From assembly GCF_053078305.1 (NCBI RefSeq), contig NZ_CP166879.1: 64,000 nt of DNA. The stretch is one strand, 5' to 3'. Shown here piece after piece: positions 12,965-64,000 of this stretch (its first letter is position 1; each line of letters opens with the position of its first letter). The notes under the pieces are model-generated. The model was not told the DNA's origin. It did no database searches and saw only the letters and a program-made list of their open reading frames with translations. Made by a program: the position numbers and the translations under genes.

Positions 12965-13263
12965 AATGGCTCACTCAAGCTTGCTCACGATTGATTCCAG
13001 TAACAAACCGTATTGTGTAATTATTTCTATAGCAGATCGCTATATAGGCTTGTATACATCGAATAATTTGAAAATCAAAGAGATAGGTAGATTTTCACTC
13101 GAAAGTAGTATTACGTGTAAGTGAGGAGTAATTATTGTTCGGTATCAAAGGGAGACAAAAAAAGCGCCCGCAGGAGGTTTAACGCTACTTACTCCCCTTG
13201 ATGATTTGCTTATTTTTCAATGAGTAAATCAAAACAAGGGGAGCAAATAAGCACAAGTTACAA

Positions 13264-18150: not shown

Positions 18151-18266
18151 GTGATCATCATGCACACACAAAAAAACCGCTTGCCATGCCGCAATCAGTC
18201 AGGTTACATTCCCACTGCACCTCATAAAACGGGTGCCGGGATTACCACCCCGCCGACTACACAAGC

Positions 18267-18290
18267 GCACAACCGCGCCAGCGGTTTTTT
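18267..18290 (+). terminator. Rho-independent terminator inside early region
   Basis: Hairpin accgcgccagcggt followed by TTTTTTT. Confidence 0.55.
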
Positions 18291-18470
18291 TGTGCGTACT
18301 GTATCGCCACGTCTTTTTCGCGTCAGAATTATGGCGGGGCGTACGGGGCCGACTTCGGTCGGGCCGGGGTCTTGTGTAGCCGGTTGTGGTAACCCTGTAC
18401 GTCTCGCCACCCTGAGATTACCGCCTCGGGTTGGTGAGTTTTCACAACTTACTACACAAGGGGCCACACC

Positions 18471-60749: not shown

Positions 60750-60971
<222 letters not shown>

Positions 60972-61224
60972 TTGTTTTACCGCCTGATGGGCGAAGAGAA
61001 AGAACGAGTAAAAGGTCGGTTTAACCGGCCTTTTTATTTTGTGATATGTATGAAGTACTTTGGAAGTATAAGTCCGTAACTTGTCTCGATGTAGATATAC
61101 TGCACAACTTGTTTACAGTATGAGCAAACAATAATTATCATTAAAATTCTTCTTGACCGTTTTACTCCAACTCCCTATAGTAGCGCCCCGTTGCCACCCA
61201 TGAGGTTTGGCAGCAAAACAATTT

Positions 61225-61312
61225 GGTGAGGTGTCCGAGTGGCTGAAGGAGCACGCCTGGAAAGTGTGTATACGGCAACGTATCGGGGGTTCGAATCCCC
61301 CCCTCACCGCCA
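61225..61312 (+). tRNA. serW: tRNA-Ser (anticodon GGA), long-variable-arm class II tRNA
   Basis: GGTGAGGTGTCCGAGTGGCTGAAGGAGCACGCCTGGAAAGTGTG...GGTTCGAATCCCCCCCTCACCGCCA; acceptor stem complementarity, T-loop GGTTCGAATCC, CCA end. Confidence 0.93.
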
Positions 61313-61317
61313 TATTT

Positions 61318-61351
61318 AAAGAAGAGCTCGTACGAAAGTGCGAGCTTTTTT
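61318..61351 (+). terminator. Rho-independent terminator after tRNA-Ser
   Basis: Hairpin aagagctcgtacgaaagtgcgagctt followed by TTTTTTT. Confidence 0.6.
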
Positions 61352-61655
61352 TTCGCATTTTATCTGTCTGTACGGCAGTGAACATGGTGGGCGGGTGGAG
61401 TATGTTACCTGTGAATTTCTAAGCTGCCTGTACGGCAGTGAACACAAATACTACACGTTTAGCCCGTTGTTAATAAAGCAAAACCATCTCATTTTCCTGC
61501 TACCACCCTTTTTTTATCCTTACCTTACCGCAGCACTAATTATCAACAACTTACCATCATCATCAAAAAAAGGGTCTGAACCTCCTCCCCCATAAATAAA
61601 AAGTCCGTAACCTCTTTCGAGATTACGGACTTCACCAACCTACTTAACAATCAGA

Positions 61656-63932
61656 TTAATGCGCTGCTTCCGCCTTGTGCTTTTGTGCACTCTGGAATCC
61701 GTAAGTCAGCTCATTTTTCTCTTTATCCAGCGCGACGGTGACCTGACCGCCGTCCACCAGCGAACCAAACAGCAGTTCGTTGGCAAGCGGTTTTTTCAGG
61801 TTGTCCTGGATGACACGCGCCATCGGACGTGCGCCCATTGCCCGGTCGTAACCTTTCTCGGCCAGCCAGTTACGCGCTTCCTGGCTCACTTCCAGCGAAA
61901 CACCTTTCTGATCCAGCTGAACCTGCAACTCGACGATGAATTTATCCACCACCTGATGGATCACGTCAGTTGACAGATGATCGAACCAGATAATGTTGTC
62001 GAGACGGTTACGGAATTCCGGTGTAAAGATCTTCTTGATCTCTTCCATCGCATCGGTGCTGTTATCCTGGTGGATAAGACCAATGGATTTACGCTCAGTT
62101 TCCCGTACCCCGGCGTTGGTGGTCATCACCAGCACCACGTTACGGAAGTCCGCTTTGCGTCCGTTGTTATCGGTCAGCGTACCGTTGTCCATCACCTGCA
62201 ACAGAATATTGAACACGTCCGGGTGCGCTTTCTCGATTTCGTCCAGCAGCAGCACCGCATGTGGATGCTTGATGACCGCATCAGTCAGCAAACCGCCCTG
62301 ATCAAAACCAACGTATCCCGGAGGCGCACCAATAAGACGGCTGACGGTATGGCGTTCCATATACTCGGACATATCAAAGCGCAGAAGCTCAATGCCCAAA
62401 GCTTTCGAAAGCTGTACCGTCACCTCTGTTTTCCCGACCCCGGTAGGGCCGGCAAACAGGAACGAACCAACCGGTTTATGTTCGTGACCTAAACCTGCAC
62501 GCGCCATCTTAATGGCTTCAGTCAGCGCCTCAATAGCTTTATCCTGACCGAAGACCAGCATTTTCAGGCGATCGCCGAGGTTTTTCAGGGTATCGCGGTC
62601 ACTCTGAGAAACACTCTTCTCTGGAATGCGTGCAATACGGGCCACCACGGACTCAATATCCGCCACATTTACGGTTTTCTTGCGTTTGCTTACCGGCATC
62701 AGGCGTGCGCGAGCGCCCGCTTCGTCGATAACATCAATCGCTTTATCCGGCAGATGACGATCGTTAATGTATTTCACCGCCAGCTCTACCGCCGCACGCA
62801 CCGCTTTTGCGGTATAACGCACGTCGTGGTGCGCTTCATACTTCGGTTTCAGGCCATTGATGATTTGAACAGTTTCTTCGATCGACGGTTCAGTAATATC
62901 AATTTTCTGGAAGCGACGCGCCAGAGCACGGTCTTTCTCGAAAATGTTGCTGAACTCCTGATAGGTTGTCGAACCAATTACGCGAATTTTACCGCTGGAG
63001 AGCAACGGTTTGATTAGGTTAGCCGCATCGACCTGACCACCAGACGCTGCACCCGCACCGATAATGGTGTGGATCTCATCAATAAACAGGATGCTGTTAG
63101 TGTCCTGCTCCAGCTGCTTGAGCAACGCTTTAAAACGTTTTTCAAAGTCGCCGCGATATTTTGTGCCCGCTAACAGAGAACCGATATCGAGAGAGTAAAT
63201 CGTACAGTCAGCCATCACTTCCGGCACATCGCCCTGAACAATTCGCCAGGCAAGACCTTCTGCAATCGCGGTTTTACCGACACCAGATTCCCCCACCAGC
63301 AGCGGGTTGTTTTTACGGCGACGGCAGAGAACCTGAATAGCACGCTCCAGCTCCTTCTCACGACCAATCAGTGGGTCGATTCCGCCCACGCGCGCAAGCT
63401 GATTCAGGTTCGTCGTGAAATTCTCCATACGTTCCTCCCCACCAGCTTGTTCTTCGCTGTTTGGCTGGCTGCCAGGATCAGAAGACTGTGTCGGCTCGTC
63501 TTTACGCGTGCCATGAGAGATAAAGTTCACCACATCGAGACGGCTGACTTCATGTTTACGCAACAGATATGCCGCCTGCGACTCCTGTTCGCTAAAGATA
63601 GCGACCAGAACGTTTGCACCGGTAACCTCATTGCGACCGGAGGACTGGACATGGAAGACCGCACGTTGCAGTACACGCTGAAAACTCAGCGTCGGCTGTG
63701 TGTCGCGCTCCTCTTCACTGGCAGGCAGAACGGGTGTGGTTTGTTCAATAAAGGCTTCCAGTTCCTGACGGAGCGCAACCAAATCCACAGAACACGCTTC
63801 CAGCGCCTCCCGGGCAGATGGGTTACTGAGCAGCGCCAGTAACAAGTGCTCGACGGTCATAAACTCATGACGGTGCTCGCGCGCTCTGGCGAAAGCCATA
63901 TTTAAACTGAGTTCCAGTTCTTGATTGAGCAT
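61656..63932 (-). CDS. clpA: ATP-dependent Clp protease ATP-binding subunit ClpA
   Basis: 758 aa from [35 protein letters not shown]; two AAA+ modules (GESGVGKTA and GPTGVGKTE Walker A); track ORF starts 5 codons upstream. Confidence 0.95.
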
Positions 63933-64000
63933 AGGCACCTCCCCCAATTTTTATGCCTGCATTCAGGCTTTTTCTAGCGTACACAGCAATGGATGCTCAT

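Follow-up and report, generated by a model that had tools for sequence, protein, structure and literature searches.

Directly downstream of serW, the tRNA-Ser(GGA) gene of E. coli, a short sequence occurs twice in close succession, and the question raised by this locus is what the pair represents. A preliminary description of the window, i.e., the whole 64-kb stretch of DNA analyzed here, proposed that the two copies could be scars of past integration or excision at the tRNA gene, or simply a conserved intergenic repeat. Our results show that the feature is almost certainly an orphan (cas-less) type I-F CRISPR array at the clpA-infA locus. Its identity and origin are secure, and the discussion below mainly concerns what the array may still do.

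The repeat pair

The 21-nt copies CTGTCTGTACGGCAGTGAACA (61364-61384) and CTGCCTGTACGGCAGTGAACA (61424-61444) are identical at 20 of 21 positions, start 60 nt apart with a gap of 39 nt, and are positioned immediately past the serW terminator hairpin (61318-61353). Both repeats sit between the convergent terminators of serW and clpA. The 21-mer pattern, allowing up to three mismatches, has two matches in 64 kb where 0.01 are expected, and two or more matches were found in none of 100 shuffled sequences. The direct repeat reported after the tRNA-Ser(GGA) terminator is thus real, but the earlier reading took the wrong strand and stopped short of the full unit. The true biological unit has 28 nt and lies on the minus strand, at 61443-61416 and 61383-61356, and the 21-mer is the conserved 5′ part of this unit viewed from the opposite strand. 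Missing from the 21-mer are the last 8 nt (3′) of each repeat, where the terminal copy diverges, and one base in it belongs to the leader or the spacer. The 60-nt period arises because a 28-nt repeat is followed by a 32-nt spacer. The parts of the array and its flanking features are listed in Table 1.

Table 1. Parts of the CRISPR array and flanking features, with positions in the window.
Feature	Sequence	Position	Strand	Basis
CRISPR repeat 1, leader-proximal, perfect 28-nt type I-F	GTTCACTGCCGTACAGGCAGCTTAGAAA	61416..61443	-	Rfam match, comparison
Single 32-nt spacer, matches I-F cas1f	TTCACAGGTAACATACTCCACCCGCCCACCAT	61384..61415	-	Match to cas1f and CC PAM
Degenerate terminal repeat (repeat 2)	GTTCACTGCCGTACAGACAGATAAAATG	61356..61383	-	Weak Rfam CRISPR-DR4 match, regex comparison
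CRISPR leader, clpA terminator to repeat 1		61444..~61599	-	Homology to I-F-positive leader
clpA intrinsic terminator, upstream leader boundary		61600..61633	-	Terminator scan, inverted repeat
serW intrinsic terminator, abuts terminal repeat		61318..61353	+	Terminator scan; hairpin and T-run
serW, tRNA-Ser(GGA), flanking gene		61225..61312	+	ARAGORN; Rfam tRNA
clpA, flanking gene, fixes locus as clpA-infA CRISPR-III site		61656..63932	-	ORF list, annotation of homologous loci
infA, other flanking gene		60753..60971	+	ORF list, annotation of homologous loci

Array architecture

Repeat 1 matches the Rfam family CRISPR-DR4 (RF01317) with 50.1 bits (E 2.7e-10; gathering cut-off 35 bits), a scan of the whole window agrees, and the sequence is the same as the repeats of the cas-associated arrays in loci L001, L004, L005 and L020. 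With its 28 nt, the pattern GTTCACTGCCG.A.AGGCAGCTTAGAAA and the Cas6f stem-loop, it belongs to the I-F repeat family, and its RNA hairpin (CUGCC/GGCAG) has a predicted fold of -8.6 kcal/mol. The terminal repeat reaches CRISPR-DR4 at 20 bits only. Its six changes comprise a G17A substitution in the stem and the divergence of its final 8 nt, and with G17A the predicted hairpin drops to -1.4 kcal/mol. A degenerate terminal repeat is usual in CRISPR arrays. Together, the two repeats enclose one unique spacer in an arrangement of 28 + 32 + 28 nt.

Upstream of repeat 1 lies a leader homologous to the leaders of active arrays. In an alignment of 24 sequences, consisting of the window and the 23 loci of our strain sample (4 cas-positive and, besides the window, 19 cas-less), repeat 1 is invariant and the leader varies at 83 of 228 columns, with the ~60 nt nearest the repeat as its best-conserved part. 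The leader holds one sigma-70-like site (TTGATG, a 16-nt gap and GATAAT; 61566-61539), which is not significant as 0.7 such sites are expected.

Several other candidates in the region were rejected. The small ORFs over the array (43 aa on the minus strand, 85 aa on the plus strand) are taken as spurious, as they merely read through the repeats. The 88-nt array also folds on the plus strand (-31.9 kcal/mol, z -2.9), a fold that we attribute to base pairing between the two repeats, which are partly palindromic, rather than to a structured plus-strand RNA. The remaining Rfam matches in the region (sX4, MicC, Thr_leader and others) fall far under their cut-offs.

Comparison with strains carrying I-F cas genes

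In strain N56 (L001), the site reads infA, a 7-repeat CRISPR array, serW, cas6f-csy3-csy2-csy1-cas3f-cas1f, a 9-repeat CRISPR array, the leader and clpA. Counted from behind the leader, the cas operon of I-F-positive E. coli has the order cas1f-cas3f-csy1-csy2-csy3-cas6f. The window is collinear with N56 (blastn, 96-98% identity) over infA, over serW with its terminator, and over the first repeat, the leader and clpA. On the clpA side, L001 14001-16586 aligns with window 61415-64000 at 97.9%, the leader of the clpA-proximal array included, and on the other side L001 4723-4931 aligns with window 61144-61352, where the homology stops at the serW terminator. Relative to N56, the window is without the cas operon and the infA-proximal array. 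No Cas-F protein was found in the 64-kb window by tblastn with the six N56 Cas proteins, the spacer itself being the only match. The adjacent cas genes that a complete CRISPR-Cas system needs are therefore absent from the window, which holds an orphan array and not a complete system. Judged by this homology, the window array is a cas-less type I-F array that retains the leader of the clpA-proximal array.

The cas-associated I-F arrays of N56, 504211, A13 and E69 (CRISPR4.1/CRISPR4.2) share the repeat, the 32-nt spacers and the CC PAM with the window array, and their leader beside clpA is homologous to that of the window. However, they comprise 9-20 or more repeats beside cas1f-cas6f, whereas the window has two repeats and no cas genes. 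While the window carries an anti-cas1 spacer, none of the 76 distinct spacers of the cas-positive arrays matches the cas operon. The two groups also differ in how the arrays end, as the cas-positive arrays end ...GTATTCACA and all sampled cas-less strains end ...GATAAAATG.

The N56 operon itself contains a repeat-like sequence, GTAAACTGCCGTACAGGCAGCTCGCGCC, in the gap between cas3f and csy1 (L001 9105-9132), in the orientation opposite to the arrays. CTGCC/GGCAG is its own reverse complement, so the cas mRNA would bear the same stem, with the loop UGUAC. This sequence could be a Cas6f binding site and offer a route of autoregulation.

The spacer and its target

The spacer matches cas1f of N56 (L001 13221-13252) at 30 of 32 positions, with CC directly 5′ of the protospacer, and is inverted relative to both the array and cas1f. 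CC is the PAM of type I-F systems. In E. coli E69 the match to cas1f is 31/32, differing at position 6 only, and the gene reads CC, then TTCACTGG...CCAT; CC precedes the cas1f protospacer in all of L001, L004, L005 and L020. Positions 4 and 6 of the spacer are mismatched in the commonest E. coli cas1f alleles (L001, L005), to which the more divergent allele of L004 adds position 10. Known cas1f alleles accordingly show 1-3 mismatches to the window spacer, and position 4 lies in the seed. Position 6 is flipped out in the Csy complexes of type I-F systems. It is also the flipped-out base in type I-E Cascade complexes (PMC5965380).

Outside the I-F operon, the spacer found no match in 72,556 plasmids and 50,697 phage records (distant blastn). 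A protospacer scan with a degenerate pattern over 100,044 representative genomes, one per species, had only two matches: cas1f of E. coli E69, and a MAG contig that resembles E. coli and has the same orphan array. The inverted orientation, a length of exactly 32 nt and the PAM favor genuine acquisition over a deletion remnant, and together these features argue for a spacer acquired from an I-F cas1 gene.

In the MAG ‘Proteobacteria bacterium B43T3L14’ (L021, JADFJT010000085.1), positions 1123-1210 hold the orphan array with flanks as in E. coli K-12. This contig, labelled Proteobacteria only, is probably Escherichia.

Distribution across E. coli

A 501-bp region around the array is matched in 5,425 of 5,426 complete E. 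coli genomes, and the 88-bp array itself, at a coverage of at least 80%, in 2,337 of them. K-12 MG1655 and BL21 have exactly the window's array. The gene cas1f is found in 241 of the same 5,426 genomes. The preliminary description was right to speak of a conserved intergenic repeat, but this wording misses the identity of the feature as a CRISPR array.

The sampled cas-less arrays contain 1-3 spacers each. Among the 11 distinct spacers of the 19 loci and the window, ten match N56 cas1f, cas3f or csy3, and nine of these ten have the CC PAM. The window array falls within the anti-cas orphan CRISPR4 group, defined as cas-less clpA-infA arrays with spacers matching I-F cas genes. The first repeat is perfect in every sampled cas-less strain, and almost all of these strains have at least one anti-cas spacer. 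The cas1 spacer of the window is the leader-distal, oldest unit in multi-spacer cas-less arrays (L012-L014, L019), and an ancestral multi-spacer anti-cas array that may have been trimmed differently by lineage fits these data.

Individual strains show further variation. The sole spacer of the 11 that is not anti-cas is the leader-proximal spacer of CREC7837 (L015), GCACACGTCGAGCTGGTGGGGATTAATGCTGG, with a best match to the N56 cas operon of 19/32. In 21EVA (L012), PEC408 (L014) and 81 (L019), the cas1 spacer is present in a 28-nt version with a 4-nt deletion, TTCACAGGTAACATACTCCACCCACCAT, which points to decay in some of the lineages, and other lineages also carry variant terminal repeats. RtT elements (Rfam RF00391, 45-49 bits at a cut-off of 45) separate the terminal CRISPR repeat from the serW terminator in some strains (L002 1657-1792; L023 1384-1519; L011 304-440 and 484-618). 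The carriers include the BL21-sized laboratory genome INSC1002, L011 has its two copies beside a tyrosine integrase, and the window has none.

Annotation of the locus in RefSeq varies as well. Most sampled cas-less records, K-12 included, show the array without any CRISPR annotation, with ET5 (H67) as an exception. In M00057 (L016 438-836), a 132-aa ‘hypothetical protein’ spans a four-repeat orphan CRISPR array and is likely a mis-annotation.

Earlier descriptions of the locus

This orphan array is already known, as CRISPR3 (Touchon and Rocha, 2010) or, in the naming of Mojica's group, CRISPR4.1-2 (Díez-Villaseñor et al., 2010; Almendros et al., 2014, 2016), and the sole new element in our analysis is the re-count on a larger, present-day genome set. 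The locus, the 28-nt repeat, the leader and the degenerate terminal repeat are the same in the window as in the published array, the 88 bp equal those of K-12 MG1655 and BL21, and the spacer match to I-F cas1 is as published. There is no substantive difference from the published array, and the flanking leader departs from that of K-12 in a few places (97.2% identity over 501 bp).

CRISPR3 was placed between clpS and aat, and its spacers in genomes without the Ypest (I-F) cas genes were found to match Cas1, Cas3 and Csy2, for which an ‘anti-CRISPR’ role was proposed (Touchon and Rocha, 2010; PMC2886076). The same authors argued for a conservation of the CRISPR3 spacers that exceeds expectation. 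As the alternative, PMC2886076 cites the proposal of Díez-Villaseñor et al. (2010) that the spacers drove the loss of cas genes. The locus was later named CRISPR-III and the lone array CRISPR4.1-2; all strains analyzed had at least one such repeat unit, and few had cas-F genes (Almendros et al., 2014; PMC3903273). According to the account of Almendros et al. (2016; Nat Microbiol 1:16081) given in a review by the same group (PMC8616872), expression of native orphan arrays is constitutive, and the arrays interfere with plasmids that carry the full I-F cas set and trigger primed adaptation.

Proposed mechanism and present-day function

The mechanism that we propose starts from the observed repeat identity, architecture, leader homology, cas-F absence, target with its PAM and distribution, and adds transcription, processing and interference, which we infer or take from the literature. 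A promoter in the leader would transcribe the array on the minus strand, and with no Cas proteins in the cell the transcript would stay idle. On entry of an I-F cas operon, the transcript would be cut by Cas6f to a crRNA with the 8-nt handle CUUAGAAA at its 5′ end, followed by the spacer and by a hairpin of 20 nt at its 3′ end. This anatomy is taken from the published I-F crRNA, which has an 8-nt 5′ handle and a 20-nt 3′ hairpin bound by Cas6f (PMC5965380). The Csy complex would then recognize the protospacer and its CC in the cas1f that arrives, and the DNA would be degraded by Cas2/3. The attack on cas1f would also prime further spacer uptake, and the I-F system could not establish, i.e., the array would confer ‘anti-cas’ immunity. 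We regard the reading as a whole, comprising the orphan I-F identity, the cas1f-derived spacer and the anti-cas working, as probable.

We give present-day anti-cas activity of this exact copy, which is the same as that of K-12, an even or slightly better than even chance. Four findings speak against full activity. G17A weakens the predicted 3′ hairpin of the crRNA, to which Cas6f binds, from -8.6 to -1.4 kcal/mol; the spacer mismatches the commonest cas1f alleles at seed position 4; the only promoter-like site in the leader is no better than chance; and copies with the 4-nt-deleted spacer or variant terminal repeats occur in other lineages. Given G17A and the cas1f mismatches, the window copy may be a weakened version.

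The serious rival to anti-cas immunity is that the array is an inert fossil. On this view, an ancestral I-F system would have taken up spacers from its own cas genes, the autoimmunity would have favored loss of the cas operon, and the mini-array left behind would now drift without function. This explanation agrees with ours on identity and origin, differs in present-day function only, and is in our opinion somewhat improbable, though far from negligible. The signs of wear just listed, namely the spacer deletion in L012, L014 and L019, the several terminal-repeat variants, G17A in the window and the mismatches to extant cas1f alleles with seed position 4 among them, would all be expected of such a relic. 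Moreover, the multi-spacer cas-less arrays (L012-L016), cut to differing single spacers in separate lineages, resemble the outcome of random unit loss, and the spacer-driven cas loss attributed to Díez-Villaseñor et al. (2010) in PMC2886076 points the same way. However, all sampled cas-less strains keep the perfect repeat 1 and nearly all keep at least one anti-cas spacer, and spacer conservation above expectation has been argued for CRISPR3 (Touchon and Rocha, 2010; PMC2886076). Furthermore, the expression of native orphan arrays and their blocking of I-F plasmids, as summarized from Almendros et al. (2016) in PMC8616872, speak against a functionless array.

Two further readings are very improbable. 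In one, the transcript of the array would have a role independent of Cas proteins; being convergent with serW and antisense to its terminator, it could affect how the serW 3′ end is formed or how clpA terminates. In the other, the K-12-type changes (G17A, and T-to-A at spacer position 6) would be adaptive instead of signs of decay.

serW as an integration site

The proposal that a mobile element at serW left the repeats behind as att-type scars starts from a sound premise. serW is a genuine integration site, as islands with tyrosine integrases are found in it in L011 and L022, and the att sites of serW and serX islands are likewise direct repeats beside a tRNA-Ser gene. However, such att repeats duplicate the 3′ end of the tRNA and flank an integrase-encoding element, and the window repeats do neither. 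The 25-mer at the serW 3′ end occurs once in the window and is unlike the repeat, and the resemblance between repeat and tRNA is limited to a chance match of 11/13 to an internal tRNA segment. In the island-bearing strains (L022, L011), it is the last 14-17 nt of serW that stand at the junction, not the repeat, and the terminator and array are unchanged. L022 keeps 14 nt of the serW 3′ end at its junction, followed by the terminator, and the array beyond is identical to that of the window.

Presence of the repeat does not track an integrated element either, since the array is the same in the island-bearing L022 and the island-free K-12, and repeat 1, an exact I-F CRISPR repeat, is identical in 24/24 aligned sequences with or without an island. 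The earlier reading had itself named presence of the repeat whatever the island content as grounds for giving it up. By these sequence comparisons, the integration-scar reading is refuted, and we give it practically no weight. Only in a loose sense is the array a relic, in that it remains from the I-F cas operon cluster which other strains carry at this site; it is not an att scar.

Elsewhere in the window, Rfam matches to isrK and the C4 antisense RNA lie adjacent to each other (18217-18291 and 18327-18414), with STnc130 about 5 kb upstream of them (13055-13189). The pairing of isrK with C4 points to a prophage or an island of phage origin ~43 kb from the array.

Equally negligible in our view is the idea that the two copies are transcription factor sites or another regulatory repeat for serW or clpA. 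Each copy does contain a short palindrome (CTGCC..GGCAG) and lies between convergent terminators, but the copies are downstream of both genes and not in a promoter. The palindrome forms the Cas6f hairpin of what is a true CRISPR repeat, and a cas1f-derived spacer with a PAM lies between the copies. LexA-like and CRP-like palindromes were considered and rejected, as their spacing does not fit and the CRISPR identity accounts for the palindrome.

Significance for E. coli

Self-targeting CRISPR spacers, and the loss of cas genes or targets driven by autoimmunity, are said to have been described by Stern et al. in 2010 and Vercoe et al. in 2013. Like such spacers, the window spacer matches DNA of the host's own species, in this case a cas gene, and its target is absent from the genome. 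It differs in that the target is the CRISPR machinery itself, and in that the arrangement is found in most sampled E. coli lineages and is not sporadic.

For the annotation of this locus, our results mean that the feature is to be recorded as a CRISPR array, and neither as a tRNA integration scar nor as a protein-coding ORF. The array is a textbook case of a CRISPR array turned on its own cas genes, and anti-cas arrays of this kind help account for the rarity of I-F cas genes in E. coli, which are found in only about 4% of the complete genomes (241/5,426).
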